Shown here piece by piece: positions 9,406 through 51,251 of a stretch of 64,000 bases of DNA (positions are counted from its first letter, which is position 1; the number at the start of each line of letters is the position of its first letter). Made by a program: the position numbers and the translations under genes. Below the pieces are notes generated by a model. That model ran no database searches. It saw only the letters and a list, made by a program, of their open reading frames with translations, and was not told where the DNA came from. The stretch is from Obrimoposthia wandeli (taxonomy: Eukaryota), in NCBI GenBank assembly GCA_977020255.1, contig CDROCS010001033.1, forward strand, positions 62,001-126,000, given 5' to 3'.

Positions 9406-10105
9406 GTATACACACTCTGATACGAGACAGAATATTTCTGCCTTGTTTTGTTTCGGAGTTTATGTGTGCGGCAGGGAAGAGAAATTCACACACACACACC
9501 GAGACGAGACAAAAAATGTCACGTGATGCCTTTGTGTGATTTTCAATTTGCGAGTATTTGCAACTATTTGCAACATACATGCACGTGATGTCCTTTGTTC
9601 TTCTATGCTGATTTTCTCATGGGAACTTTCACATACTGAGAACATGAATAAAGCCTTTCAGGACAACCTGATGAGCACACAAATATGAGCTCATTCTTGA
9701 AGCTACTTCTTTGAGCTGGTTCTATTAAGGTAGTTCTTTGATTTTGTTATTTTAAAATAAATCTTTGATATGGTTTTTTGAAGGTTGTTCTTTGATTCTT
9801 TAATATGGTTATTCGAAGGAGGTTCTCTCAAAGTGGAAAGAAAGTAAAACCTTCGTGGGTTAACCTTCAGGGGTGGACTTAAAAAATTTAATTTTTCTAC
9901 TTTTCAAAGTTATATATATTAGGCTTGATCTGATCTTGGTCTGACATCCAAGAATTGACCTAAAGAAACTTATACTATATTATGAAAACTTACATAGATG
10001 TTAAACTGAAATTAACGATATATCAATCATGAATATTCTACAAATAAAATTATTACAGTCATTAAGAACTTAAGAGTCAATTAAGGCATTGATATTTCTA
10101 ATGTT
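9406..10105 (-). repeat. Long inverted repeat, arm B (partner 1774-2488)
   Basis: Near-exact reverse complement of arm A. Confidence 0.95.
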
Positions 10106-17297: not shown

Positions 17298-17937
17298 ATA
17301 GTAATCAGACAAGTGTGGAAGCTAAAATCGTAAAGAATAACTATAAGCTAGAAACACATGTCGCTGATGACGTTCTGTATGTTGAAGAAAAACCTTTGCA
17401 AGATTCGAATAGTTCATACGCCAGTAACATGGACCTCAATGATATCAGTTTTGTGCCAGTAGACAGAGTCAACGAATTGTGCCAGTCTCACAATTTGTCA
17501 ATGAGTGATGAAGCTCACGACTACTTGAAGAGAGCCAGCACACAATTTCTGCATCACATATTGAGTCAGGCATTTATTGCTGCAAAAGCCAGAGATCTAG
17601 TCAATGAAGTCCTGCGTTCGGATAGACACAAGCTACGGATGATCCCGAATCCGGTAACATGCTAGTTACAAATTCACATACCGTTGACGGTATCACGAAC
17701 AGAACGTTGCAATCTTTAAGGGAATCAGGGACTACGCAAACATTGTTGCAAGAATTCATAAATATCAAACCAAAAATACCAGCGAAGATTATTGATCCGC
17801 CAAAGGAACAGAAACAAGTGAACCATAAAGTTCGTATCACCACCAAACAACTGATATTGGTAATACAAATGCACAAGGCCGCGGACCAGCTTACATGTCT
17901 GAGAACATTCAAGGACCTGCAGAACAAGATTGGATGA
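17298..17937 (+). pseudogene. TAF4-like histone-fold gene copy, 5'-truncated, with a 1-bp frameshift near 17660
   Basis: Near-identical to 33608-34248; aacatgct here versus aacattgcc in the intact copy. Confidence 0.8.
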
Positions 17938-18890
17938 CTCTTCCAAGTTACAATATCCTCTAAAACATTATTATATTCTACTACGTTGTATTACTTATTT
18001 ATTTATCTTAATTACGTATTTAGTAACCTCTCATCATATTTTGTGATAAAAAATGCAAATCATTGATCCAAACACAACGAATTATTGATGTAACAATTCT
18101 TTTGATGACTTCTTAATATTAATTCATTAAACTTCCACTCATTCAATATTTTTAGCATCTTTTAAAAATACGACTTTTATGTGTCTACCAATTCTCCCAT
18201 AAATGTTTTCTTATTAGAATCACTGATGGTTGTACTTCAAAAATCACTTGTGAATATCACCTGTAAGAACCAAAATTCATTATCAAAGGAAATGATGCCA
18301 TTTTCAGAAATATCAATTGATAAAACTAAATGTCCTCCCAATTGTATTTCAATTGAATATCAATATCAAGATAGAATGATACAAGATCGGACCAAGCGGA
18401 TTGGTAATTCATGTTCGGAAAATATTCGAATGAGCTAATAAATAAACGTTATATATTCATATCTTTATTTTCACGATTATAATTATTTATTAATATTTAA
18501 TAAGAAAGAAGCCTGAAAGTTAAGGTTATAAATATAATGATAGAAATATTGATATTTTTTTGAATCAGATGATTCATGAAACGATAGACAGAGAAATGAT
18601 AGTAATGAATAGTAATATGAATAAAATTGTGAGAAACTACGCTATCTTTAGAAATATCAAACCTATACCCAATGATGACTCAATCGTCAATGGCTACTTG
18701 ATAGAATGGATGTAGATGAATCAATAAAATACTTATGATGAATTACGTACATTATTGTTAAGTTCAAATAATCAAGGTTCTATCGGAATTTTACAACATG
18801 TGTAATGATATAGATGAAATGTGTATTATTGCTAATTTTGGTATAAGATTCTTTGAGAGAGTATATAGGATTATAACCTGTTATAATATT
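17298..18890 (+). repeat. About 1.6-kb segmental duplication of 33608-35190
   Basis: Colinear match from atagtaatcagacaag through the TAF4-like ORF and about 950 bp of downstream non-coding DNA. Confidence 0.9.
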
Positions 18891-30900: not shown

Positions 30901-33900
30901 TAAAATTAGAATAATTTTAGGACCTTGAGAGTTCATGTTTGTTGTGTAAGTGTTTAAAGAGAGTTTAAATTATTAGAAAGCCCCCAGAAGCTGGTATGAT
31001 TTAAGAGAGATTTGCACAACTGCGCGCATGTCTGTAACTCAAAGATTCATTACGGCAAGACCGAGAATACAAAGTAGCTGCAAATCGATCTACTGTTGAC
31101 TTATGTAATACATATATTTCTGATATCTCTCGACCAGGTTCGTTTTCGATTGTCGATGTAATGTTGATTGAATTTTATGGACGAGTTTGATTTCATTAGT
31201 ACATACTTTTAAGGTAGTAAATACCGTATGAAAGTAACTTGGTTAGTTGACAATGACAATAAATAAAACCACTATAGGTAGCTTTAGTAGCAATTACAGT
31301 TTTAAAGCATCTTTGCAATTAATGAACTATAATGTTCATATTTTACTTTCTTAAAATAAACATATTTGTAACAAATCTATTATATTTTTATGTATACGTT
31401 TATCTTCAAAATTTTCAGCATACCAATATTATTTATAAATGTATAACTTATTTTCGTAAATCTTAGATAATTAAACTCCCGCCTAATTTATGGAACAAAT
31501 TGAAAAGAATGTACGTACGTTGAAGGTTACTTAAAATTAAAAAGTAACCTCAATAGAAAGCACATAATTACATAGAATATTATTTAAGAATTTCGACAGG
31601 AAACATTGTATTTAGTAATATCTAAAAACGATGTAGACTGGGTGTTTCTGAAGCGGTTAAAGATAGTCATTGTGGCAATATTGACTTAAAAATAAGAAAG
31701 ATTAAAAAACTGAACACTTGGCTTGAGTATAATAGAAACATATCTTCATAATACAGGTATCTCATCTGAAATTAGTTCTTCAGAAGAATTTCGAATTAAT
31801 AACAATTTTATTAGTGTTCTTGAATCTGATAATAATGTGCAAAATAGAATATTGAAAGTTGATACTGATCATTTATTTGTGGAATCCGTTCTAAAACATT
31901 TTAATAATATGAGTATGAATTATTTCATTCAAAAATATAGGAGTAGTGAAATTAAGAAGTCATGAAAAACTTATGAAATTTTCATCTTCCTTGAAAATGC
32001 TACTTAAATAAAGTGACGGCGCAACTATGATTCCTGTGTCTTAGAATGAGAAATACTGCTTCGGCATAAAATCTCAAATCATCAAAATGTATGTATATGA
32101 ATTTTTGCTCTAGTTTCTGCATTTGTTCTATTGCATACATTTTGTGTTGCTATTTTAATAATTTGGGGTTTATGGACGCCGCTGAAGCACACCAGATTTA
32201 AGCATTCTCACATAGAATTATAACACGACGTTAGATAATTTTTAACATTGTCTATGAAACGCTGGTTTTGCTTGAACCACTAAACCCTATTTTGAGCTCT
32301 AACTGTTCTCGAAATAAACTTGCTCTATTCCTCTTAATCCCAAAGTTGTACACAGCCTCTGCAATTGACTGTACAGTAGTTATATTTGACTACATTTGAT
32401 GAATACCTTAAGAGGCATCAGACCCCATTCATCAACAAAACTATTTGGGTTCCTGCCAACATTACTAACACAAAATGATTCTACACTTCGAAACCTTGAC
32501 AATTATCAAGAAACTCAATACAAATATACAACTCTTCCACGGTTGCAGCTCTTATAGTCCATCAACTCATAAACACACACACACAAAAATGAATCAACAA
32601 TGGTCAATTGGCCAATGACAAACACTTTAAAGTGCAAACACAAAACATTCGGCTTCAATTGGCCAATTTTTATTGACGTAATCACATGATTCAGAAATTT
32701 GCATAATCCCTTTTTTATGATCATAATTTGTAGTTTAGAGTACAGATGATTAATTCTGTTCTAATTTGAACACTAACTGTTTCGTCAACTGTTTCGCGCA
32801 TTCACCTGAGACTATTAACGAACTTTATAAATTGGTTTCTTGTATTGTCGAAAGGTTCTTGGCAACATTAAACTTGACATATACTGCATAAGTAAAAAAA
32901 TTAAGATTTAGTTGTTTTTGTAGCCAACTTTCAAAACTTGGAGAATTGTTAAAAGTGAAACATTACGTTCAATTTTCTAGATGATGCAGTTGAAGACTTT
33001 TCAATTATCTCTCGAACAAATTTAATAACTTTTCTTTAAAAAGACAATCTATATGTGTATATAACGATTCTCTCACAAATGTTTTCTTATTAGAATAATT
33101 GATGGTTGATATTTGTTCCTCTGTTCGACCATTCCCAATTTAATGTCAATGTTAATCGAATTTATTTTTATTACATTTATGCAAATATTTCAAGTTAAAC
33201 TCAATAACTTCTTTTAAATAACCTTAATCATTCATTAAATTTAAAATATAAACTTCAATTTGTACATTATTTTTTATGACTTGTAATTGAATAAAAAGAA
33301 TAGTTTATTTAAACAAAAATATGCACAACTTTCAAATATTTTTATTTAAAATATTTTAGAGATTTTTTTACAATTTCGAAAAAGTAAAATATTTTTTGTT
33401 TGTTATTAATAATTTTACTAAAATACTAATGTAAAATAAAACTCAAGAATAAACAAATGAATATAAATCAAAATCGTGAAAAGAAAGTGAGTTATGTGAA
33501 AGGATCTGTCTCGTAAAATATTAAAAAACCAAAACGACCAAGTCCATCCAGAGATATGGAATGTGTTCCGATAAAGAAAATCAAGTTATCTTCTTATCAA
33601 AGTGTTGATAGTAATCAGACAAGTGTGGAAGCTAAAATCGTAAAGAATAACTATAAGCTAGAAACACATGTCGCTGATGACGTTCTGTATGTTGAAGAAA
33701 AACCTTTGCAAGATTCGAATAGTTCATACGCCAGTAACATGGACCTCAATGATATCAGTTTCGTACCAGTAGACAGAGTCAACGAATTGTGCCGGTCTCA
33801 CAATTTGTCAATGAGTGATGAAGCTCACGACTACTTGAAGAGAGCCAGCACACAATTTCTGCATCACATATTGAGTCAGGCATTTATTGCAGCAAAAGCC

Positions 33901-36900
33901 AGAGATCTAGCCAATGAAGTCCTGCGTTCGGATAGACACAAGCTACGGATGATCCCGAATCCGGGAACATTGCCAGTTACAAATTCACAAACCGTTGAGG
34001 GTATCACGAACAGAACATTGCAATCTTTAAGGGAATCAGGGACTACACAAACATTGTTGCAAGAATTCAAAAATATCAAGTCAAAAATACCAGCGAAGAT
34101 TATTGATCCGCCAAAGGAACAGAAACAAGTGAACCATAAAGTTCGTATCACCGCCAAACAACTGATATTGGTAATACAAATGCACAAGGCCGCGGACCAG
34201 CTTACATGTCTGAGAACATTCAAGGACCTGCAGAACAAGATTGGATGACTCTTCCAAGTTACAATATCCTCTAAAACATTATTATATTCTACTACGTTGT
34301 ATTACTTATTTATTTATCTTAATTACGTATTTAGTAACCTCTCATCATATTTTGTGATAAAAAATGCAAATCATTGATCCAAACACAACGAATTATTGAT
34401 GTAACAATTCTTTTGATGACTTCTTAATATTAATTCATTAAACTTCCACTCATTCAATATTTTTAGCATCTTTTAAAAATACGATTTTTATGTGTCTACC
34501 AATTCTCCCATAAATGTTTTCTTATTAGAATCACTGATGGTTGTACTTCAAAAATCAATTGTGAATATCACTTGTAAGAACCAAAATTCATTATCAAAGA
34601 AAATTATTCCATTTTCAGAAATATCAATTGATCAAAACTAGATCTGTACAATTGGATTTCAATTGAATATCAATATCAAGATAGAATGATACAAGATCGG
34701 ACCAAGCGGATTGGTGATTACTGTTCGGAAAATATTCGATGGATTTAATAAATAAACGTTATATATTTCGTATCTTTATTTTCTCGATTATAATTATTTA
34801 TTAATATTTAATAAAAAAGAAGCCCATTAAGGTTATGAATATAATGATAGAAATATTGATATTTTTTATCAAATGATTTATGAAACGATACACAGAAATT
34901 ATAGTAATGAATAGTAATTTAAATATATATACCTTAAAAAATTGTGAGAAACTACGCGATCTTTAGAAATATCATAATATCAATAATCAATGGCTACTTG
35001 ATAGAATGGATGTAGATGAATAAATAAAATACTTATGATGAATTACGTACATTATTGTTAAGTTTTAATAATCAAGGTTATATAGAAATTTTACTACATG
35101 TGTAATGATATAGATGAAATATGTGTATTATTGCTAATTTTGGTATAAGATTATTTGAGAGGGTATATAAGATAAGAACCTGTTATAATTTAAAGAATTG
35201 CATGTGGTCTTGTATAAGAGATGATAATTAATTTAACTTCCAAAACATCTAAATAATACATTCTTTTTCTAAATTTTCTTTACTATTACTACATTACTCA
35301 ACTTTATACTTCAAATCTCCATAACATATTATATTAGAAATATCATTAGGAGCTTCAATGATCAGCGACTTTATGCTGGTTGATGAGCCTGAAAGAACTA
35401 CTGAGACTGGACGTTGATAATAATATTTATAATTTCGGTGTTTCAATAATCAATATGTATCTACGGTAATATATGAATTTAAGGTATTTCGAAATTTCTC
35501 TGAAAGTTTTTGATAGAAGATTCATGAAACGATAGACAGAGAAATGATAGTAATGGATAGATATACTTAGATTTGTGTTTACTTATAAAATTTCGATTAT
35601 TGTTCTTTAAAACATTAACTTTATCATCTAACTCAAATATTATAATAAAACTCTTAATATCTTAGTTTTACAATGTTAACTAAAAGTTTATTTTATTGGT
35701 TAAACAACTACAACGTAGAATAAAACTCTTAATATCTTAGTTTTACAATGTTAACAACTAAAAGTTTATTTTATTGGTTAAACAACTACAACGTAGAATA
35801 TTTTTAAATAACTGCAACGTAGTTGAATTCAACAAATCAAAATTAATTTAGAAATTGATATATAAGATATATTGGAAATAAATATTAATTGTAAAGACTT
35901 AAAAATATAAAAAGTGACATCAAACACCTATAAAATACGAATGCTTAAGTGGAAAACATAGTATCGTGATTATTGTGATTGGCTATCTTATTTTTTAATC
36001 AAATTCTTGTTAAGTTAGTATTGATATCAGATTTATTTAGTGGACAGTTTTATTATTAAGATATTCGACTAACGTTACACTTTGGGCTCATAAAATTATA
36101 AATGCTGCTACAAGACCTTACTGTTAATACATCTCGGTACATATCATTCTGTAGTAATTTTAGCAAGTTTTAAGTGTGCTAAGTTAAATATAGTTATTTT
36201 AGCGAAATCGGTAGAATATTCATTCCGAGTTAACTCCCTTGTGAAATTCGTGTGCCCCCTAACATATAGATTAGCCGAGGGACAATCCACGTGACAATAT
36301 TCCACGTGCTGACAGATTCAGATGAGTATTGTCTACGTCGATTGGTCCCGTCTCTGTTTTATCGATATTCGATCTTGATATTGCTAGTCCCTGCCGACAT
36401 AAAAAGCTAACTCAACTGATAAACGTCCCACTCTGCGTTACATCATATCACACTAGCTTTGGGGTCCTACTAGCTATTATGTGAACACAACTCCTTGAAC
36501 ACACCACAAAACAACAAGACACAAAACCTTTAGATTTGAGACTAGAATTAAGTAGGATACGAACAGGTAGGCCACGTCCCTCTGTAAGCCCTATCGTTAC
36601 AGAACTCACGTTGGGGGCCTCCCTACGAGGATCTAATAGAAGAGTTTCAATTAGAAACCACAAATCATTATAAATTTATTTTCTAATTTTAAAATCTGAT
36701 TATATAAATATGTTAAAATTATGGAATTAAAAAAAATAAAAATTTTACTATTTATATTAAAAGATTTTACCTTGAAATTAAAAATAAATTTAAAATAAAA
36801 ATATAAAAATAAAGTTAGAAACAAAAAAAAATAAATAAGGATATTGGAAGGTCATGGGGAATTGGAAAAGTATAAATAGAAGCTGTGTAAAAATATCCCC

Positions 36901-39900: not shown

Positions 39901-42900
39901 TCCGCTTAGTTGATATTCATGAATCAACAGATTAGCATTACAATAGGGTTGTTTTAAATCCCACAAGTGTCGTGATATCGTCATGTTTGTCATTTGGTTG
40001 TTTAGGACCAATAAGGGTAATTGAAGTACAAATGAATAGCCGATTCTGCTATTTTATCACAATTCGAAAAATTAAGGCTGAACAATAATGGTATATTATA
40101 TATATTAAAGAAAACTTCGGGCCATTATCAAGAAACAACTAAAACAACGTAAAATGAAAAGACAAGATATAATTAGAAATTTAACCAATATCTGATCGGA
40201 CAATACAGAAATAGTTCCCATGTATAAAAAAATTATAGAAAGTCTACCTAATCATATTGAATGTGTGATCGCCTCGAAGGGAGGTCATTGCAGATATTTG
40301 CTTTTTTAAAAATATTGTAGATTTTATGTCTGTATATTTATCTACATTATAATAAATCATAAATATTTTAAAAAATGTTCAATTTTGTGTTTTTCTGATA
40401 AATTTTAATAAAAATATTGTGTTGCAAACTTTTTGTCGCGTACTGTATATATATATATTGCAATAATTGATGGAATGACAATCACTAATGAGTGAATCTC
40501 AAGTTATGACTGGTTGCACAAAGGTTATAAAATGTCAAAAATTGTGAAAACTATTTCAAAATGTATCAATAACATTTATGATGAAAAACGTATTGAACTG
40601 TAAATTGTAAAGGATACTGTATTTTTACGTTATGTGTAACATCACATGTGCTTAGCTAAGACTCATTTACAGTTGAATGCCATGAAACACTATGAAACAC
40701 TCACGTCATTCTCCAGATACAGGAAGGTGCCGGATCGCAGAATCCGCTGGATCACCTCTCCATCACCGTTATTGTAGGCCTGCAACAACTGCCTCAGCGG
40801 ATCTGAATCGTCGTTGTCCAGCATGGATCTGGTGTGATCAGAATAGTGGAATTATCAAGCCAGAAACAGTGCTTCATAAACAAACTGATCTCCATCCGAC
40901 TCTGCATCCCCTTGTTAAAAGGGTCAGATTACGAAATCATATTAATGAGTTTCATTTTTTAAAGTATTAAAATTATACGGGCCTAAGCTTTTTTATGTAC
41001 TCGTTGAATAAACAGTTCATACTTTTCCGAATATGGCTGATTGTACCATATCTGGTACGAGTCAAGACTTCATTTTATATATTACAATTTCACAATTTTA
41101 CCATCTTTGCTTATTTCAGGACGGTTTCTTTTTGAAATAAAATGAAATTTCATTTAAATATACTTTAGACGACATTTTGACATTAAAACACCTTATAATT
41201 TAGTGATAAAATTAATACGATACTCTAAACATGTGTGAAAAAAGGTTAGGTCGGATTAAAGAGGGAATTTTACTGACAAAAAATACCTAGTCAGTCAAAA
41301 ATAGATTTGGAGTCGGAATACGAGAATCAGTGTAAAAAATCACTAACGTTAGCACTTAATTTATCTTTAATCAGTTCTCCAAAAAAAGGTCACATAAACG
41401 AGGGGGTCGGCCTAACAGGAGTAGACTGTAGCATAGACGAAAACTGGCTGGTTGACAATACAAAATCAATAGAATGTACAAGTATACAAAAGTGATCTTT
41501 TTCTTAACCAAATATAAGGACATATTATTTAATGTATAATGCGAGTAAATTTTTAATGTGATAAATAAATAAAATCATTTTTGTAATCGAAAAATAAAAC
41601 TGTTTTGAATTTGATTTTGTAAAATTGACTTTTGCAAAAATATGCACTCAAAATTTTAAAATGTCTAATTTCTTGTAAATGATTTTAAAAAATAGATGCA
41701 AAAAAGTGATTAAGTACGCACGTTTCCCTGCGAACACTGTAAAATAGTATTAATTGATTGACGTGTTTTTTTACTCAGTTTTGTTAACTGAAAATGCAAT
41801 TATTTGTAAAGATATGCGACGTGCAGTAAACTTGATCATCTAAATGACCCGTGAAATCTTTTGGGTTGGCCAAGCCAGCTCTAACAGAAGCACTGGGGTT
41901 CTTTAACGATCTAACTGCCGACATGTTGTTGTAATACAGTAGGTTTCTACTAAAAACCGTTAGACGGCATTCGTGACGAATTTTTATTTCCGCCCACTTT
42001 TTTAGATATTGCTATTGAAAATGCATTTACATAATATTCTAACGGATGTAGCTTATAATGAGTGAGTATTTCTCAAATCGTGAGTGGGATTCTATTATAA
42101 TTCCACTTCTGGACCCGGTTTATAATAAGAGGCTTACAAATTGTATAATCATATAACAAATTGATTTAAATCCAAAAAAATTAAAATTTACATTAAAAAT
42201 GTTACTGTTAAAAAATTGTTAGAGATATTCTATAACTGAAAATATAGAATTTATATTTTGAGCTCCGATAAGTCATAATGACGAGGTTTACGCCCTATAC
42301 GAAATAAGTTTTTTGTGCTTGTTACCGTGAGTTTATAGTAAAACGCAGTTAGCTGATAACTCCCCATTACATCAATGGTGATCACTGACCCGCTCATCTC
42401 CTCATAGAGTTTGGTGGCTGCTACGATGTCGTTGTCACGATGCAGGATGACGATGATGGCAGCGATCAGCGCCTTGCTGGCCTCGTGATTGACACCAGCA
42501 GCAGATGCCAGACGCATCTTATCACGCAGAGCAGCCACCACCTCTGCAGAGCTGGCAGAGCTCTCCCTCGCCAGCATCTTGGCTGCCAAGCCGGCGTACT
42601 CGCTCGCCTCACGCACGTTGTCCGTATCCTGTGCCGCCTCCGCGGAGAACCGGTACAGCCGACCAGCGGCTCCAGGGTGGGTCTGCTCAAGCTTCCTGCA
42701 TGAGAGACAAGACAAATGAATAACTTTAGTACTTCCTTTTCACGTTATTGACCACATTTGATTATTTAGAAAGAAAGAATCTTGAGCTGTAAATGAGCTG
42801 ACACCAAAATTATAATGAAGTGTTCGGTTAATCGGGATCTTACTGTATGGACATGATACAATACATTATTATATTTACAGATAACAACTTAATATTTTCT

Positions 42901-44981
42901 AATTTAATTCAAGCCTTAAGATGTGAACGAGTGTTAAGTATAAAAAATATATATAAATAAATATAAATCTATATATATTTAACTATATTTTATAAATAAA
43001 ATAAAATAAATAAATAAACTTTCTCACTATTTTGAACGAGTCCCATAAAAACAGTTTCGAAGCTTTGTATTTACAGAGTTTAAGGCGATGCTTACAATGA
43101 ACTAAATGACTGGTCCTGGCCAAAAAGCCTATCTAATTAGTATATACCTGGAGTATAGCAAACCCTGCAATAACTAATGTATTTTTATAGCAAACCGTTC
43201 TAATGGTACTTGGAATAAAATTGCTTTGTATATAGTGGTCATGCACTCAAAACGTTGATGTTGAAATGTTAAACACGAGTCAATTAAATTATGGTTAACA
43301 AGTCGAGGCCAAAAACTACTTTTAATTATTCTACAACAATCTTAAACTGATTTCAAGAAATTATTGACAAAGGTGTCCAAATTATTGATGAAATGTTCAA
43401 GTATAAAATAATTTTATTCCTAAAAAAGTGTTTAGTTTTAATGACATCTTGACATTTATATAATTTTTAGAAATCGAAGTTCCATGCTCTATAACATTGA
43501 GTGAGAGATATGAAGTCTTACATCACCTGTGCTTATCTGTGGACTGAGAAAATGCTTTTATGTACTAAATTTTTGCCGCTTGCGATGTGTATCCTATTTT
43601 CATATTTGCCTCACTTTTTATAAATAACTATTTCACAATTACAGTACTCTCGCCACACCCGTAGGAAAATGCTTGTAATAAAATATTAATTTTGCATTTC
43701 AATATGTTGTCTAACCTTTGATTTCATACACAAATAGTCTTGATGTACTTTATGACCACCATTGCAACTGGCGAGAAAAGGTTCTCAGTGGTGAAACAAA
43801 TAAATAATGTCCTCAGATCAACGAAATGCCGAAAGGGACTAGCTGTTATATCAAATGAAAACAATATGCTCCGCAATTTGCAATTCACAGATGTTTTGCA
43901 GATATTTGTTACCAATAAATTGTGTAAAGTAAATATGTGAATTATACTTTACTTACCATATAATAATGTTTATGCTTTTATTTATGTTGTATTGCACTGA
44001 CAAACTAATCAATAGAAATTCACAATATGTCCAAGAATAGATTGTATTAAACAATTATTGTTAAGAGTTATTTGAATTTTCGGCTATAGAAGAACAGTAA
44101 ACAGTCGGTAAACTGAAGAAATCTCTATATACTTATAATTTAATAACATGTTTAATTCAACATTTTATACAAAATAAGTAGCTGTATTGTAATAGCTTTA
44201 AAAAACGTTTAGTCAAAATACCGATTTAGGAATATTGATATCATATTCTCATAACTTGATTACCAAGCAATTAAGTGGTATTTCTAATATTTACTTTAGT
44301 TATAGACACTAAATTATGATCTTGGTCCCTTAGTCCTTGATATAGCGGCATTATACAGATATATTATTTTAGTAAGTAAATTAAGCACATTTTAACATAT
44401 TTCATAATTACTAACAGTATACAATTTTTAGAACAATAAACCGTGAACGTGCCTGCTCAAGCAGAATGTTATTGAATTTTAATTAATTACTTTCCGATGC
44501 GCTGCATCATTTGACAGGCCGCAGAGGCGGTGCCATTCACACGCAGCTGCGAGCCAGCTTCCAAAATCAGCTGCATTCCCCGTTCAATGTTTCCTTGATT
44601 CAGACAGATATCTGCTGCTGACTCTTGTGCCTTGGCAGCGTAGAATATCGAATGGTTTTTCTCGTGTAATTCTGAGACCTGCCAACATCGCGTTACAGTC
44701 AGTCAAGTATTTATAACACTAAATAAATCGATACATACTAAATAATTTCAACATACTTTCATTAAAATATTAATAGCATTTTCTAAATCCCCGCCAGCTT
44801 TAAAAGAATCAACAGCTGAACTGTAATAACTAATTGCACTATCGTAATCAGGCGACCATTTCATAAAAGACGTTTTTAAACTAAATATAATAATTTTCAA
44901 TTTGATTATTAAACACAAAAACCTTTTTTCAGCCTTTTTAACAAAATTATTTGCTTCTTCTATTTTGTTTCCACTTGACAT
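21957..44981 (-). CDS. NAPG: Gamma-soluble NSF attachment protein; exons 44981-44923, 44880-44757, 44678-44491, 42695-42390, 40828-40705, 22073-21957
   Basis: The spliced frame is continuous with GT-AG junctions: MSSGNKIEE..KAEKSLKTSFMKWSPDYDSA..FYAAKAQESA..NGTASAA..ILHRDNDIVAA..LRQLLQAYN..FLYLEND|YAKLARDL, colinear with human gamma-SNAP. Confidence 0.92.
23440..24300 (+). pseudogene. Mariner/Tc1-type transposase remnant, interrupted
   Basis: GISHTTVHKILRNDLNIKPYKI*FYQALYDEDFADRH (HTH linker) and FLIPCL..VFQNDGA (second catalytic Asp). Confidence 0.6.
24598..25370 (+). repeat. Diverged direct repeat pair (about 24598-24850, 25115-25370)
   Basis: Shared core gaacttatgatataccgacattctacataaaaa..ttttgtgaaactaaat. 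Confidence 0.7.
26250..28954 (+). mobile_element. hAT DNA transposon, 2705 bp, antisense inside the NAPG last intron
   Basis: Perfect 8-bp TSD GTTATAAT (26242-26249, 28955-28962). Imperfect TIRs TAGTGAGTAAACA / TAGGGGTCAAACA; ACCGGTAA subterminal repeats. Confidence 0.93.
26600..28479 (+). pseudogene. hAT transposase (BED finger, DDE core, dimerisation domain) with a stop at 27041-27043 and a frameshift near 27795
   Basis: VWQYF..CLQC..STSGLKAH, FSLTIDEYTS, VTTDGAS, CLAHACHL, TRWNST, ATSVESERAFS. Confidence 0.92.
29125..29722 (+). repeat. About 48-bp exact direct repeat (29125-29172, 29674-29722)
   Basis: aaaaatatgtacaagtgagttaatacttaatgttggataattctattatt occurs twice. Confidence 0.85.
30790..30988 (+). 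mobile_element. Internally deleted mini-copy of the solo-LTR family
   Basis: Starts TGTTAGGGTTAGGATTTA like 52695 and ends gagtttaaattattagaaagcccccaga like the family 3' end. No TSD. Confidence 0.55.
33556..34248 (+). CDS. Intronless TAF4-like histone-fold protein (230 aa), nested antisense in the NAPG intron
   Basis: DISFV..RVNELCRSHNL..DEAHDYLKRASTQFLHHIL..AAKAR resembles the TAF4 alpha1-alpha2 helices. After a long linker, KVRITAKQLILVIQ resembles the TAF4 C-terminal RVNLRDLIFCLE helix. Confidence 0.6.
   Translation: MECVPIKKIKLSSYQSVDSNQTSVEAKIVKNNYKLETHVADDVLYVEEKPLQDSNSSYASNMDLNDISFVPVDRVNELCRSHNLSMSDEAHDYLKRASTQFLHHILSQAFIAAKARDLANEVLRSDRHKLRMIPNPGTLPVTNSQTVEGITNRTLQSLRESGTTQTLLQEFKNIKSKIPAKIIDPPKEQKQVNHKVRITAKQLILVIQMHKAADQLTCLRTFKDLQNKIG
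35645..35795 (+). repeat. About 75-bp tandem duplication
   Basis: aataaaactcttaatatcttagttttacaatgttaac...caactacaacgtag occurs twice. Confidence 0.9.
36170..36662 (+). mobile_element. 3' part of an LTR of the same family (5' end not located)
   Basis: Carries the conserved 3' core and ends GAAACCACA; 36170-36260 matches 63917-64000. Confidence 0.7.
36711..38195 (+). mobile_element. Solo LTR, 1485 bp
   Basis: TGTTA...GAAACCCCAACA with a 4-bp TSD AATA on both sides; conserved 3' core. Confidence 0.8.
38395..39050 (+). pseudogene. Ty3/Gypsy pol remnant (RNase H and integrase pieces)
   Basis: ITRKEMPVIVHFTDYFKHHLYGKRFRLRTDHKAL, TDALF, CENCQERK, IDFCGSL; many lesions. Confidence 0.8.
39414..40445 (+). 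mobile_element. Tc1-like transposon remnant
   Basis: EISDDLECNKSTVSRVIQKYAETGS (HTH) and ESLPNHIECVIASKGGHCRY (C-terminus). Right TIR ...aactttttgtcgcgtactg followed by TA. Confidence 0.8.
42932..43033 (+). repeat. 102-bp AT-rich direct repeat, one mismatch (second copy 45158-45259)
   Basis: Directly visible; one copy is in NAPG intron 3, the other just upstream of the NAPG ATG. Confidence 0.9.
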
Positions 44982-46418
44982 ATCAAAAAAAGTATTATGC
45001 TATTTAAAATTAAAAGTCTGTAGTTTCTCATAAATAAACGTATTTAGAAAAATGTTTACCAAGAATAAAAAATAAATTAGAAGAAATAAATAAAAAAACA
45101 AATTAACTAATAGATTTCATACAAGATATTATAGATATTAAAGAAATTATAATATATTGTTAAGTATAAAAAATATATATAAATAAATATAAATCTATAT
45201 ATATTTAACTATATTTTATAAATAAAATAAAATAAATAAATAAAGTTTCTCACTATTTTAAACAAATATGCATTCATTTGAAAATTTATATCTAATGTAC
45301 AAAAATTAAATTAAAACAGTTATATACTTTTTGTTCATTTTCATTTGTATTTTACTTTTTTAAACATTATATATATTTACAATATTATTTTTTATTAATC
45401 ATATTTTAAAATTATTATTTGTATCTGTTTGACAATGTGAAAAAATCTTATGTACTATATAATGTATAATCTTACTCAAAATACTATTAAAATGGGGCAC
45501 TAAAAATTTTAACGCTTAAGTTGTTTTAATGAAATAATCTTCACATTATATAAATACTGAAACCTTTTAACTTCCTTAACATTAAATCTTTATAAAACCA
45601 ATTTTCGAGTAAAGAATTTAGCAAATTTATTAGCAAATTAGTCAAATGGATTACAAAATATAAGACAGAACTGATACATGGCCATGTAATTTCTTCATTT
45701 TTTGCCACTTCTAATAATTTGTCCCGTTTTTGTTAAAGATTCCTGTCAAGATTAGACAATGAAAATAAAAGAAAATAATTGTCATATAAGATCTACAATT
45801 AGTGATTCAATTCCTAAAAACAAAGAAAAAAATATAATTATATGGTTCTTTAATTTTTTAACATGCAGTTTTTATGTATAATAAAAGATATAACCCAATC
45901 GTATCAGAGTAGCAAAAATGATTCCACAGAAAGTCTCAACAAAATCGTACATCTAACAAGTGTAATAGTTATTAGGGTTTTTAAACTAATAGTTATTTTA
46001 TATGCGGCGACGCTAAGTTGTGCTAGATGTCAAAGAGTGAATTTGACGTAAATGTGAGTAAAAAAACTATAATGATGAATGGGGCAATTTGTCTTAGAAG
46101 TAAGTGTTCCAGTACACCTAAACTGCTTTTGGGAACGCGACGGAAAAGATAATAAATATTTATAAATTTGATGCCCTATGCCTTATTAACATAAAAATAA
46201 AACTGCAGCTTTTGAGTTAATAATTGTTTTATAAATATGTATTTTGACTGAACTCGAAACTGAACAATTTTGGTGATTCAGTCACTGTACCAGATCAAAT
46301 TACTCAACTGAGCAGGTTTTGAAAATTGAAACAACCTGTCAGAACAGAATTAGTTGAGATCGGCTGCTACTGCACTCCACTGAGGCTGATTACTCCCAAC
46401 TGAAACAACAACAAAACA

Positions 46419-47215
46419 TTGCCGATACTAGATCACTTTCAAAACAAAGATCAAACAAATGATCATAAGGCTGAAACCATCGCGAAGGTTTTAGTCGAAA
46501 AAATTATTTTTACTTTCGGTGCACCCCGAAAATTATTAACCGACAAAGGTCCTGAATTTATAAATAATGTATTAGCGTCAATAGCTGAAATTTTTCACAT
46601 AAAAAAGATCAATACAACACCATATCACCCTCAAACCGACGGATTAGTAGAAAGATTTAATAGAACCCTCGAAGATATGATGGGATCATACACAAACAAC
46701 AACCAAACAGATTGGGATTTACATATACCTCCATGCCTTTTTGCCTTTTTGCATATAGAACATCAGTACATGCATCTACAGGAGAAACATCTTTTTACCT
46801 TATGTGCCTCAGAGATCTTCAAATGCCTATTGACCTAACATTACTACAACCTACTACACAGTACCTAGAAATACCTGAATACAAAATAGAAATAAGAGAA
46901 AGAATAAAACTAGCATTCGAAAAAGCTAAATTATTTTTAAAAAACATACAAGAAAATTTCAAAGAATATTATGATAGAAGAACTAAGCCATCAAATATAA
47001 AAATTGGAAGTAAAGTAATGATTCACAATCCACAAATCTATGTAGAATTATCACACAAATTATCAAAACCATACAAAGGACCATATACAGTCATTAGTAC
47101 CAATGGAACTAACATAACAGCTAAACTCGACAATGAACCAAAATCAAAAGAAATAAGAACACATATGTCGAGAAATACCAGAGGAAAATACAAAAGTAAA
47201 AAGTCACAAATATAA
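46419..47215 (+). pseudogene. Ty3/Gypsy integrase core and C-terminus (5'-truncated, frameshifted by an 8-bp duplication)
   Basis: LLTDKGPEF, TTPYHPQTDGLVERFNRTL, YRTSVHASTGETSF, KLSKPYKGPY; gccttttt duplicated at 46735-46750. Confidence 0.92.
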
Positions 47216-47321
47216 CTTAAGATCAACTAACAATAATACTGTTCTACAAATGTTAACTATAAAAAACTCACAAAAACAAAACAAGACTAAATTGAGTCAT
47301 CAAACTAAAAATACAATAAAA

Positions 47322-48584
47322 ATGTCAATAAAAGAAATATGTAAAATAATGATGTTATTAATAATATATTTTACAGTAAAAAGTAACATAATAAAAGTAA
47401 ATGCTATAAACCTGAATGAAAATCAATTAATAGTAAAAGACGAAATAAATAGATACGACTCACAAACACATCTCATAAAAAATTTTGGACTTATTACAAT
47501 AATACCTGAAATCACATCAATAAAGTTGAAAATATCACTCTTTACAAAAAAATTAGGAAGAATTCAAATAATACAATCTGAAAAAAATCAAATAATAAAT
47601 ATTTACAAAATCGAATCAAAAAATTATATAATACCATTTTTAAGAACAGAAACACAATACAAAATAAGAGTTAAGTCGAATTTAAAGAATATAACACTTT
47701 ATGAAAGAATTATAGAAACTCACTTATACTTAACTTCAATATTAAAAACGACAGCAAAATATATAACAAAACATCAAATCATGATAAATTGGGAATTTCA
47801 ACTTAAAATAGATAATTTTGATAAAACCCTCATTAGAATTAGATATAGAGGATATAATGATCATTTTTGGAAAGACGCAGAAAAACAATTAGAAAAAACA
47901 CAAATCAGAACAAATATCACTATAAAAAATATAAGATATCCAGAAAAAATAATAATGGATAATAGAGAATATGTAATTACTAACAAACGAATAATGTATA
48001 GACTATGGGGACAACAATTTGAGACTTGTAAAAATCTAACAAACTTAAGGATTTTTGGAAATAAAATATCCAAATTATACCAACCTACGATTTTTTGTGG
48101 CCAATGGTCAGTAATTACAATTAAGAAATATATCAAAGAAACAACCATAAAACAAATACCACATACTACAACATTCACAACAAAGACTTATGAAATTACA
48201 AATCAAAGTAATATCACAGAAAATAAAACAATTAACAAACAATTAAAAACAACAAAAACAATACCCTATAAATCATTGAATGAAAGTCTAAAAATACACT
48301 TTAGTAAACAAAAATACTCAAAAAATATAAATAACATGGAAATTTTTATAACAATCATAATAATTGAAATCTTTACATTAATCATAAAAATAACATGGAA
48401 GGTTATTAAAGTAAAACATAACACAATTTTCAAAAAACTTTATCGGACTAAATATTGTGAACCACCTGGCCCATTTATGACATCCATCATACCTAGCTCT
48501 TCAAATTCATCTAACATATCAATAAATACAATAATTGAGAACAATAAACAGAAAATAGAAAAAATCTTTATAAAATTGTCATAA
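47322..48584 (+). CDS. Env-position type I membrane protein: signal peptide, two FN3-like domains, Thr-rich stalk, TM helix, cytoplasmic tail
   Basis: Signal MSIKEICKIMMLLIIYFTV; FN3 hallmarks YIIPFLRTETQYKIRVKS and YITKHQIMINWE..IRIRYR..W; TM MEIFITIIIIEIFTLIIKITW. Starts about 100 bp after the integrase stop on the same strand. Confidence 0.65.
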   Translation: MSIKEICKIMMLLIIYFTVKSNIIKVNAINLNENQLIVKDEINRYDSQTHLIKNFGLITIIPEITSIKLKISLFTKKLGRIQIIQSEKNQIINIYKIESKNYIIPFLRTETQYKIRVKSNLKNITLYERIIETHLYLTSILKTTAKYITKHQIMINWEFQLKIDNFDKTLIRIRYRGYNDHFWKDAEKQLEKTQIRTNITIKNIRYPEKIIMDNREYVITNKRIMYRLWGQQFETCKNLTNLRIFGNKISKLYQPTIFCGQWSVITIKKYIKETTIKQIPHTTTFTTKTYEITNQSNITENKTINKQLKTTKTIPYKSLNESLKIHFSKQKYSKNINNMEIFITIIIIEIFTLIIKITWKVIKVKHNTIFKKLYRTKYCEPPGPFMTSIIPSSSNSSNISINTIIENNKQKIEKIFIKLS

Positions 48585-48727
48585 GAAATACATGAATTGA
48601 AATACTAAAATAAAAACTAATCATAAAATAAAGTAATTATAATGTAGATAAAGGAAAGTGCGTATGTGTTTAGTTTAAATAGAAGATAGTAAAAAATAAA
48701 CTTAAAAACTTATTAACATTTTAGAAA

Positions 48728-49036
48728 ATGAGAAATTCAAAATTAGTACAAAATAATAGAATAAGATATAAGAGACAGAAGAAATGGGAAAATAAATTGT
48801 TGATAGAGAATATAAATCTGAGATCGCATTTAAAAGACAAGGAAATGGAATGTGAGCGAATGAATAATGCTTTTGACGTTGCAATTGAAAGACTAGAACA
48901 TAGCCAAACAAATCAGGAATTATTAGTACGACGACTCAGAGAAGCATTAAACTCTCTTGTATCGTTGAGATCAGTAATTAATCGTTTGATGGGATTTCAA
49001 CCGGGAGAAAGTGATGATTCCGGGTGTGAAAATTAG
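48728..49036 (+). CDS. 102-aa coiled-coil ORF, unknown function
   Basis: Intact ORF with a heptad-like charged/hydrophobic pattern and an acidic end. Confidence 0.5.
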   Translation: MRNSKLVQNNRIRYKRQKKWENKLLIENINLRSHLKDKEMECERMNNAFDVAIERLEHSQTNQELLVRRLREALNSLVSLRSVINRLMGFQPGESDDSGCEN

Positions 49037-49462
49037 TAAAATCCCCAGTGAGTAAATTAAAAAATAAAAGAAAATTGAGAATGAGTTTGGGCTTATGGCA
49101 TGTTTTTGGAGAGGAAATGTGTTTATGAATGGGTATTAATATTCATTAACTTTAGTTGAAATAGTAATAATAAAATTAAGAATAGGTAAAAAATGAATAT
49201 ATTAGTATAGATATGTATATATTGATATTGATAACACCAGTAATAAGAATATATATTAAAGAATGAAAAATTATATCTTGTTTATATACCTTGTTTGTTT
49301 GAACTTGTTACATGAAAAACTAAAATGATTTACAGACTTTTGATTAACAAAAAAGAGACAAATAAACTGACAAGAACATTTCATTTGATAGACATTTGAC
49401 AATTTTTTATATTTGCATGTAAAATCAACAATTTTTTTTTACTATATCTGTATATCCTACAG

Positions 49463-50590
49463 ATGAAATCAACAGACTCAAACCCACACCTGAACTGGAA
49501 AGTTGCTCCGCGGGGGAGGGGAGAGAAAACTATAAAGTTCGTCAAGCAAAGACCTGAAATGGCTTGCATGGCAAAATTCCTTTACGGAAAAATAAGGCAA
49601 TTCGAAACTAGAACGTTTAATGGAAAAAACGGTTCCAAAACGTTTGCAAATCAAACCCAATTACCCAATAAAATAAAATTGAGAGATACTCCCCGACGAA
49701 GCCTATTACTGAATAGCGTACAGGATAGGCCAACTGAACAAGGATTGTTAGAAATAATGGAGTTCCTACCAACATGCACAGATATTGAAATCCACGTGGC
49801 AAAAGGCCGTGGATTTCTACAACACAAAAGGCAAAAGGATTTTTCTATTTTATTATTACAAAATCATTCCTACCGATTGAAGAAACACCAGATAACACCC
49901 GACCTAAAAATCCGCTTATCTGGTGGAAACAATGTACTTTTCTTCGAGCAGAACATCAAACCAGAACCCGTTAAGATGTGTTACATCCAATTATCACCCA
50001 GTATTCCCCAAATGTTTTTTGTTTATTGTGAGATGGTAATAACAATGGAAAAACAGCCAACATTGGCAAGCGTCTCTATAATGAACAGGGAAGGAAAAGT
50101 CATCCTTAATACTTTATGTACCAGTAGAGAAAGAATTAGAAATTATGTAGGACGAATAACGGGATTAAGTGAGTACACATTAAAAAACCAATCGGACTCT
50201 AGGGATGTAATTACACATGTACAACAAATCCTTAGAGGAAATATACTGGTAGGAACGGGAATTACGAATGATTTAAAAGTACTAAGCATGAAAAAGTCAG
50301 ATTTCGTCACTTTAATAGATCTAGGAGCCACCAAGACCATTCAACAAGATTTCAATCAACAAACCAAAGTTGGATTGAAAAGAATGATTCTATATTATTT
50401 CAAACAGAACATACAGAAAAAGACCCATTCTAGTTTAGAAGATACGAAATGGACTAGAGAAATATACATCCGTAAAGCAAGCGAAATAAATGCTGAACTT
50501 GGGTCGATTTTCCCCTCACCTCGCGAAAGCATAGCTAATCTGCCTGAGGTCATAGACCTTTGTTCCTCTGATTCTGAGGACAGCCTTTAG
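49463..50590 (+). CDS. RRM-like + DEDDh (REX4/ISG20-like) 3'-5' exonuclease with C-terminal SIM-like motif
   Basis: VYCEMV..LASVSIMN..ITGL..ILVG..NDLKVL..LK..IQKKTHSSLED; upstream RSLLLNSV..KGRGFLQH; C-terminal EVIDLCSSDSED. Intronless, 375 aa. Confidence 0.85.
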   Translation: MKSTDSNPHLNWKVAPRGRGEKTIKFVKQRPEMACMAKFLYGKIRQFETRTFNGKNGSKTFANQTQLPNKIKLRDTPRRSLLLNSVQDRPTEQGLLEIMEFLPTCTDIEIHVAKGRGFLQHKRQKDFSILLLQNHSYRLKKHQITPDLKIRLSGGNNVLFFEQNIKPEPVKMCYIQLSPSIPQMFFVYCEMVITMEKQPTLASVSIMNREGKVILNTLCTSRERIRNYVGRITGLSEYTLKNQSDSRDVITHVQQILRGNILVGTGITNDLKVLSMKKSDFVTLIDLGATKTIQQDFNQQTKVGLKRMILYYFKQNIQKKTHSSLEDTKWTREIYIRKASEINAELGSIFPSPRESIANLPEVIDLCSSDSEDSL

Positions 50591-50890
50591 AGTAGTAAGA
50601 TATTTTACTATGCATCATTCATTAAATGTCTTATTGCTTGTGGATGTGAAAAGTATAAAATCAATGTTTTATTTTTTATCTTTGCATTAACAGACTAGAG
50701 TGATGTTGTTTTTAAAAAATCATTTTAGACAGACATACTTTAAGGGATATTCATTCTTCAATTTGTTGCAAACGTCAGAGGTCTGACTTGGTTTTTCCCC
50801 ATAGGATTGTTGGGTTATTAATTAATAAAATAATTAATAATTTAGTCAATTAAAATTGACATTTAAAATTGATCTAAAATGCCCACAATT

Positions 50891-51251
50891 AGGGAGGAAT
50901 GCCATTTCAGCCTCCGACGGGGTGGTCCCGTTTCGCCCTGCCGGGCTCGTCAGAGAGGCGGCAGAAAAATATTGATTGCGGAGACCTTTCCGCCCAGTTA
51001 TCTCTCTCTACTGTCCCGAGGGTCGCCTTTTGAAAATTCCCGGTTGCACGCGTGTGGGCATGTATAGCCGGGAATTACCAGATGCCACCAGAATTACCAG
51101 ATGCCAACCGCTAGCAGTGCAGTCGTCTCCCTCAGACCGACTTCTGCAACGGATTCCGATCTGTTTTGACGTCGTCATGTCATTAAATCTCATTGTGTCT
51201 CCCAAGAAGCCGAATTAGATGTCCCTATCCAGCTTTCTCTGTGCCACATCA
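50891..51251 (+). other. Candidate polypurine tract (agggaggaa) plus 3' LTR (TG...CA)
   Basis: Purine run directly before TG at 50900, then a GC-rich block with ATTAAA near 51182 and a CA end at 51251. No 5' partner in the window to confirm it. Confidence 0.35.

Follow-up and report, generated by a model that had tools for sequence, protein, structure and literature searches.

An open frame of 420 amino acids lies at positions 47322-48584 of the 64,000-nucleotide stretch of Obrimoposthia wandeli DNA analysed here (assembly GCA_977020255.1, contig CDROCS010001033.1, positions 62,001 to 126,000; hereafter the window), and raises the question of what a protein with the appearance of a cell-surface receptor does directly behind the integrase of a retroelement. 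An earlier note on this DNA had read the frame as a captured receptor that is expressed on its own in the position of env, and had proposed cell-to-cell spread, attachment or superinfection exclusion as its role.

The window holds the 3' end of a Ty3/gypsy element

Comparison by blastn with fuller copies delimits a 3' fragment of a Gag-Env(gB)-Pol Ty3/gypsy element on the forward strand at 46451..51007, with alignments that start at 46451-46459 and stop at 50962-51007. The window copy is a fragment only, cut inside integrase at its 5' end and missing Gag, Env, protease and RT; at the other end its 3' LTR is truncated, leaving about 200 bases (50808..51007), which begin with TG and match both LTRs of the copies C430 and C2383. 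The integrase core and C-terminal part (46451..47215; Pfam rve, E 1.8e-5) carry frame breaks, and appear as two integrase frames upstream of the 420-residue frame, hereafter the module, and as three frame segments in tblastn of L001. The end of integrase and a linker (47157..47321) are in frame with the module without a stop, within an open frame that spans 47157-48584. It is because of the breaks in the integrase part that the module looks like a separate ORF in the window.

Two further ORFs lie 3' of the polyprotein frame and belong to the element: a coiled-coil-like ORF of 102 amino acids (48728..49036), which is 87-99% identical in 16/16 fuller copies, and a DEDD-family exonuclease ORF (49463..50590; Pfam RNase_T, E 1.1e-6), which occurs in the same 16 copies, in one of them just as a 24-residue piece. 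In the window, a pyrimidine tract and an AG stand immediately 5' of the exonuclease ATG, like a splice acceptor. Exon-like frames at 42251-44990 on the reverse strand, one scanned exon of which has no Pfam match, may resemble gamma-SNAP, and the element fragment lies about 1.5 kb upstream of their apparent start. Other mobile elements probably account for a long inverted repeat pair (1774-2488 and 9406-10105, separated by about 7 kb) and for a pair of long direct repeats (17298-18824 and 33608-35124, 16.3 kb apart).

A gB-type Env lies upstream of Pol in fuller copies

When the 1.35-Gb assembly was searched with the module protein, 6626 first-look candidates were obtained, a figure that does not represent copy number. 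The 100 candidates that were scored are 87-100% identical to the query and, crowded by copies as this set is, include nothing outside the element family. The layout of the element was established by taking first ten of the copies with the longest frames. In fuller copies, one frame encodes Gag, a hydrophobic signal, a stretch that matches PF24664 (Monjiviricetes fusion glycoprotein, a class III gB-type Env; E 3e-88), a TM segment, protease, RT, RNase H, then integrase, and runs on into the module without a stop. Unbroken natural copies measure 2082, 2189 and 2911 amino acids, the last with an intact frame from before Gag through to the tail of the module, and the element as a whole comes to about 13 kb with a frame of about 2900 amino acids. 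Copy C430, the one copy looked at for these features, has 1220-bp LTRs in direct repeat that are 99% identical, TG...CA LTR ends, a primer-binding site starting TGG and a 4-bp target-site duplication. Gag of the window family has no Pfam match and was assigned by its position, by CCHC-like motifs and by the Gag matches of relatives; BIR, MATH, Bcl-2 and ankyrin domains likewise gave no Pfam match in the family.

The element thus has the Gag, gB-type Env, PR-RT-RH-IN domain order of the gB-type GAG-ENV-POL errantiviruses. Given that the PF24664 Env sits between Gag and protease in the fuller copies, the module is a second membrane protein and does not stand in for env, as had been supposed. PF24664 has no match in the module itself, and a profile of the gB-type Env found no PDB sequence below E 0.25. 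The earlier note had also named a match to an F-type or other env as the outcome that would overturn its receptor-like reading, and that reading survives the comparison: neither Pfam nor the PDB sequences contain a similarity of the module to baculovirus or paramyxovirus F, and the fold search with its first domain returned no F at E 0.001. As a separate observation, two types of the N-terminal half of Env (about 90% DNA identity; L023-L058) assort with otherwise 98%-identical elements, and synonymous changes dominate between them (21 N : 96 S).

The module is read in frame with integrase

Among 30 copies selected by the C-terminus of their integrase, the frame continues from integrase into the module signal in 26 and to the end of the module in seven. 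Read-through from integrase is likewise seen in 12 of 20 copies selected by the module, with breaks at scattered places, and in 11 of 20 copies of the divergent module type B (see below); all these counts derive from read-on lengths. The nine remaining type B copies are interrupted at varied places, mostly by single-base changes in A runs, which would fit decay or assembly error rather than a programmed shift. Contigs from two sequencing runs span all 30 bins, with no GT..AG joint among the 15 listed.

The Met at 47322, with which the frame seems to begin in the window, is replaced by Ile in types B and C and in some A copies, and the relatives P0004 and L104, described below, have no Met between the end of integrase and the hydrophobic segment. 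What had been taken for a stand-alone ORF is therefore the C-terminal part of the element polyprotein. An internal signal sequence, presumably cleaved by signal peptidase, appears to be the simplest reading of this Met-less junction, and we hold with high confidence that the architecture is that of one polyprotein, with the module C-terminal after integrase.

The module has a type I membrane-protein design

Hydropathy predicts an internal signal sequence at residues 1-27 (47322..47402; 1.78 over 19 residues on the Kyte-Doolittle scale), with a putative cleavage site, and a single TM helix at residues 339-359 (48336..48398; hydropathy 2.32), whose position is kept in types A, B, C and D. Between them lie domain 1 (residues 44-133; 47451..47720), a beta-rich domain 2 (residues 136-272; 47727..48137) and a stalk (residues 273-335; 48138..48326) with 22% Thr and three N-x-S/T sequons; the whole module has nine sequons, seven of them before the TM helix. 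The tail of about 60 residues (48399..48584) is Pro-rich and contains a PPGP motif that is kept in types A, B, C and D. Neither RxKR nor RxxR occurs, and the highest 19-residue hydropathy of the ectodomain is 1.31, which leaves no candidate for a furin site or fusion peptide. In these respects, a type I membrane protein with an FN3/Ig-like ectodomain and without the features of a fusion protein, the module is as first described. The TM helix carries a charged residue at its centre (Glu in types A, B, C and D, but Lys in one C copy), through which it could pair within the membrane.

The segment that had been likened to the start of a C-type lectin falls within domain 2, and this reading is without support: no lectin family is matched in Pfam, the Cys at residue 236 is lost in most type B, C and D copies, and the two Cys of the window ectodomain, one of which is not kept across types, do not provide the disulfides expected of such a domain. 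Relatedness to known proteins was not evident either. The module matches no PDB sequence and no Pfam family, with only PF22384 appearing at E 0.008, below the cut-off; a word search gave no homologue near its length or longer, and none was found among 1.84 billion representatives.

Domain 1 is predicted to form an Ig/FN3-type sandwich

AF2 modelling from a single sequence reached a pLDDT of 30.7. Since MAFFT placed the units of the relatives in inconsistent registers against domain 1, folding relied on ten natural copies of the family only. With these, domain 1 was modelled as an eight-strand sandwich (seven strands plus one N-terminal strand; pLDDT 57-74 by block) that shows the seven-strand order A-B-C-C'-E-F-G of FN3. 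The earlier note had named the lack of any FN3 fold as refuting its reading, and for this domain a sandwich fold was obtained. The model aligns with FN3 domains over 75-90 residues at Z 7.2-8.5, among them Sevenless (Z 8.5, rmsd 4.6, 86 aligned) and IFNAR2 D2 (Z 8.3, rmsd 2.4, 75 aligned). DUF3244, CBM56 and GH2/glycosidase sandwiches tie with these matches (Z 8.0-8.9), the range over FN3 and other Ig-like domains being 7.2-8.9. Foldseek returned nothing at E 0.001, with the best FN3 match at E 5.5e-3 (TM-score 0.54 by target). A planarian nidovirus polyprotein, the top viral-fold match (E 1.3e-3), was rejected as an artefact of the unfolded half of the model, with an rmsd of 33.

Motifs and profiles add to this picture. 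The tyrosine corner of FN3 domains, L-x-P-x-T-x-Y, is represented in domain 1 by Leu107 and Tyr113, with the Pro replaced; across the domain alignment the Leu is invariant and the Tyr nearly so. The strand-B Trp is missing. Pfam fn3 (PF00041) does not match the window protein and matches 3/13 and 3/14 aligned members weakly (best E 0.012). ESM Atlas features indicate FN3 both for the entire protein and when the ectodomain is taken by itself (0.90-0.92, with 147-180 of 256 features in common), matches that the tool itself grades as weak. A profile built jointly from domain 1 of five family sequences and from nine units of the relatives, the alignment of which presumes that they are homologous, matches 62 PDB sequences at E <=10, with anosmin-1 as the best (8e-5); judged by their names, nearly all of the 60 matches listed have FN3 domains. 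We conclude that domain 1 is predicted to be an Ig/FN3-type beta-sandwich, for which FN3 is favoured by the tyrosine-corner motif and is not uniquely best. Of the two FN3-like segments originally proposed, the first is thus retained as an Ig/FN3-type sandwich at scores below the usual significance cut-offs. The second, domain 2, did not fold (pLDDT <50) and is without profile support, since 116 of 200 shuffles reach its score against the profile of the relatives' units; it may be called FN3-like by pattern only.

Module types are exchanged on a near-identical backbone and kept by selection

Five or more types of the module, divergent or mosaic (among them A, B, B', C and D), are present in the genome, with ectodomains that are 59-90% identical on a Pol that is 97-99% identical. 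Type B is 53% identical to the window protein, and its integrase 97-98%. Forty further loci comprised 11 of type A, five of type B, 11 others and 13 without a module in the stretch, five of these 13 being from another family; the other types include C (67% identical to A), D (77% identical to A) and B'. Block-wise identity shows that D equals A in front and C behind, and that B' differs from B by a replacement of the first half of domain 2. Between A and B, the ectodomain is 68-69% identical, and stalk, TM and tail 22-47%, with the stalk lowest (22%); the corresponding dN/dS is 0.28 for domain 2 and 0.87 for the stalk. The exonuclease ORF is exchanged among copies like the module, at 34-92% identity versus 96-99% for the polyprotein DNA.

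Comparison of the window copy with five other copies gave dN/dS values of 0.21-0.33 (bootstrap upper limits 0.40-0.54). All 15 pairs of copies are below 1, with no sign of positive selection. Across 33 copies, variants shared by at least two copies number 44 N : 34 S (ratio 0.31) and singletons 150 : 39 (ratio 0.93), a difference that is significant for the module (Fisher p 2.5e-4) and for the two domains alone (4.3e-4). The lower ratio among shared variants argues that the module is maintained in replicating lineages, under a constraint looser (0.31) than that on RT (0.02) or Env (0.06). These values come from simple counting, which ignores transition bias, and Pol singletons give 0.4-0.5 by the same procedure; copies were chosen as best matches, and the sample therefore leans to the less decayed ones.

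The post-integrase layout recurs in distant relatives

A query of Env and protease retrieved 13 database proteins of 1251-3771 amino acids. Eight of them reach the end of integrase, and all eight continue in frame with a hydrophobic segment, an ectodomain of 100-375 residues, a second hydrophobic segment and a tail. Among four metagenome loci, three reach integrase and show the same layout (L102 being the same element as P0004), and L101 and L102 also carry exonuclease and coiled-coil-like ORFs, in either order. In RT-RNase H, about 1 change per site separates these relatives from the window family, in a tree of 14 sequences with a poorly supported base, and the layout is therefore old. An extra signal-FN3-like-TM module lies between two protease-like domains in L101 (4700-5400), so the module can sit at more than one place in the polyprotein. 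In P0002, P0003, P0005, P0007 and P0010, an aspartic-protease-like domain is added between integrase and the module signal; the window family has no such added domain. A search of a genome-contig collection yielded 28 pattern matches with no relative among them, and one viral-contig match proved false, lying in a phage.

The ectodomains of the relatives consist of one to three repeats, with a C..L.P.T.Y pattern, which contains the tyrosine-corner motif, in six of eight. Ten of these units are related to one another, and when they are left out lineage by lineage, nine of the ten score above all 100 shuffles. Their profile scores 7.8 bits against domain 1 of the window protein (0/200 shuffles), 13.4 bits against the type B ectodomain (0/200) and 4.8 bits against the whole window ectodomain (2/200). 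In the other direction, a window-family profile of types A and B did not score above shuffles against any of 12 relatives' tails, and hhalign of the two alignments gave a probability of 0.5%. P0010 and P0012 have a short Cys-rich ectodomain in place of the repeats, and the ectodomains of L104 and of a giant family do not score against the unit profile; the slot is therefore better conserved than its content.

This second, giant Gag-gB-Pol family has one frame of >5300 amino acids (C76:450401-470400 and C6390:34601-54600, both on the reverse strand, and eight more copies, L081-L100). Two protease motifs are present in it, and integrase is followed by three beta-rich repeats, a phosphatase of the dual-specificity type (PF00782, E 1.3e-38, in two stretches) and several signal/TM modules; the following ORF has a Cys/His pattern that looks RING-like by eye.

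Possible functions of the module

Translation of the single frame would yield Gag, Env, Pol and the module from one polyprotein. The two internal signals and two anchors predicted by hydropathy would leave Gag, Pol and the tail in the cytosol, with Env and the ectodomain of the module inside the ER lumen, signal peptidase would release the module at its internal signal, and the module would be made in equal amounts with Env and on the same membrane. There it could be carried on particles and bind a host surface molecule, with the module types differing in receptor or cell preference. We give about an even chance to this reading, in which the module is a second, variable type I membrane glycoprotein that accompanies the gB-type fusogen and likely serves to attach to target cells. 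It is suggested by a predicted glycosylated sandwich pair on a stalk that is kept by selection and exchanged as cassettes, and among the three roles first proposed, attachment fits best. The gB of herpesviruses depends on partner glycoproteins, and it is typical of viral surface proteins that the receptor-binding glycoproteins vary on a backbone that stays constant; counting against an attachment partner, rhabdovirus G and baculovirus GP64, which belong to class III too, work without one. Given that the coiled-coil and exonuclease ORFs are also exchanged, exchange in blocks may characterise the 3' region as a whole and not signal a receptor race. A bolder and more tentative proposal is that of a widespread gB-type Ty3/gypsy lineage with a two-glycoprotein entry system in one polyprotein, in which internal signals release both a class III fusogen, encoded ahead of Pol, and an FN3-repeat attachment protein, encoded behind integrase, the latter protein being swapped as allelic cassettes that set tropism.

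Other functions would account for part of these data. The module might act as an immune or signalling decoy, a cytokine-receptor-like membrane protein that is displayed by the expressing cell, sequesters a ligand or obstructs a host receptor, and forms an anti-host cassette with the exonuclease. Tandem beta-sandwiches and Pro-rich tails would suit this role, cytokine-receptor entries are among the ESM Atlas matches, the giant sister family encodes the phosphatase PF00782, and the near-tied fold matches include IFNAR2 D2 (Z 8.3), an IL-20 complex chain (Z 8.0) and a poxvirus IFN-gamma-binding protein (Z 7.8); these, however, are tied with glycosidase and DUF3244 sandwiches. A C-x-x-W motif ends domain 2 in the window family and in P0011, at what we take to recall the WSxWS position of cytokine receptors, but it is the only mark of the class I receptors: WSxWS itself is absent, and domain 1 has no Cys where four are expected in D1. 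The number of domains also varies from one to three among relatives, protein sequence searches found no cellular homologue, and we consider a decoy unlikely. An assembly or trafficking role, in which the module tethers Pol or the assembling particle to the membrane, acts as a chaperone for Env or attracts budding factors by way of its tail, with the ectodomain secondary, is in keeping with signal and TM positions that are kept in 8/8 relatives while the ectodomain is replaceable, and with Pro-Pro motifs in the tails of six of the eight, including PPxY in P0010 and P0012. The window family, however, has PPGP and not PPxY, and types A and B agree best in the ectodomain, which makes this role rather improbable. 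Superinfection exclusion or receptor interference, where the module of resident copies blocks entry of elements of the same type and the types are interference groups, could explain why several discrete types coexist in one genome under purifying selection within and between types. Selection, however, is seen on variants shared between copies, and near-neutral singletons give no sign that resident copies are maintained; we regard interference, which would be compatible with attachment, as quite improbable. Finally, a separately expressed captured receptor that replaces env would agree with the window taken by itself, where the frame opens just 5' of a Met and no env is present. The gB-type Env of fuller copies, the continuity with integrase and the non-conserved Met render this original reading highly improbable.

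Relation to known retroelements

GAG-ENV-POL errantiviruses with an HSV/gB-type ENV are known from Nematoda, Bryozoa and Platyhelminthes (Chary and Hayashi, eLife 2026; PMC13524379), and share with the window element the Ty3/gypsy Pol, the gB-type Env between Gag and Pol and many near-identical copies. The window element adds the in-frame signal-ectodomain-TM module after integrase and the coiled-coil and exonuclease ORFs. The words 'fibronectin' and 'exonuclease' do not occur in the main text of PMC13524379, nor 'fibronectin', 'fn3' or 'exonuclease' in seven supplementary files, and its elements may carry the same module unannotated. The giant gypsy elements Burro/GYPSM1 of planarians (Arkhipova and Yushenova, 2019; PMC6431247) are similar in having one very long polyprotein with accessory domains inside and an in-frame env between gag and pol that matches mononegavirus fusion glycoproteins; that review names no FN3 or post-integrase membrane module. 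Weak Bcl-2 and ankyrin matches, as in Burro, are found in the relative P0006, whereas the window family is smaller in element and frame and is without the BIR, MATH, Bcl-2 and ankyrin matches. The original Burro description by Grohme in 2018 reportedly includes predicted TM segments in Burro ORFs, so that the TM part may already be known from that work.

Nematode belpaoviruses, Atlas virus among them, encode Gn-Gc in a Gag-Pol-Env polyprotein (PMC9094657), and thereby resemble the window element in a single polyprotein that ends in membrane glycoproteins and in a division into attachment and fusion proteins. Atlas virus, however, is of the BEL/Pao type, with a class II fusogen and both glycoproteins after Pol, taken together from a phlebovirus-like source (PMC9094657), whereas in the window element the fusogen is of class III and precedes Pol, and an unrelated FN3-like protein follows Pol. 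The gypsy-like Vesta/Juno elements of bdelloids likewise have, 3' of pol, ORF3 types that encode a DEDDy exonuclease, a coiled coil or a small TM protein (PMC5408684). There, the accessory ORFs are separate ORF3 alternatives that mostly replace env (PMC5408684); in the window element such ORFs occur alongside a gB-type Env, and the TM module shares the reading frame of Pol.

A literature search over the text of papers, largely open-access ones, found no published description of an FN3-like membrane module after integrase. While Gag-Env-Pol elements themselves are known, what is described here is an old, conserved and locally variable second membrane protein in gB-type Gag-Env-Pol retroelements. 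The module is a direct candidate for how gB-type retrotransposon envelopes choose their target cells, and types A, B, B', C and D offer natural variants on a near-identical backbone for comparison. In these elements, the frame after integrase constitutes a cargo slot for membrane proteins that is overlooked when domains are annotated as Gag, Env and Pol, and an ORF in the position of env can encode an accessory protein when env itself lies further upstream. Given the thousands of first-look candidates in the genome, the module could, if expressed, be a notable product at the cell surface. If the two-glycoprotein reading is true, a retroelement would have the plan of a herpes- or paramyxovirus envelope, and FN3 would serve it as the scaffold for receptor binding.

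FN3 proteins of cells and of the assembly

Cellular type I receptors with FN3 domains (FNDC4/5, cytokine receptors, Sevenless, receptor phosphatases) share with the module the order of signal, FN3-like domain or domains, stalk, TM and tail. The nearest Atlas clusters score 0.87-0.92 with the module, and domain 1 aligns at Z 7-8.5. The module differs from them in having no sequence-level homologue, in missing the strand-B Trp and in being encoded inside a retroelement polyprotein.

Searching the O. wandeli assembly with the ectodomain of P0011 found nothing. In the same assembly, 20 places with PF00041 were inspected, and no donor gene was identified among them; 15 are long frames on bacterial contaminant contigs, and the remainder lie in apparent host multi-exon or single-exon genes. 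Two multi-copy FN3-coding sequences are near-identical on many contigs (C1624, C4460, C3145, C5552 and others; L071-L074) and could be host gene families or duplicated segments. The assembly also holds gene-dense bacterial contigs (for example C2905, C1902, C372, C665 and C5118; L062-L070, L075-L080), whose gene types we take to be those of Flavobacteriaceae.
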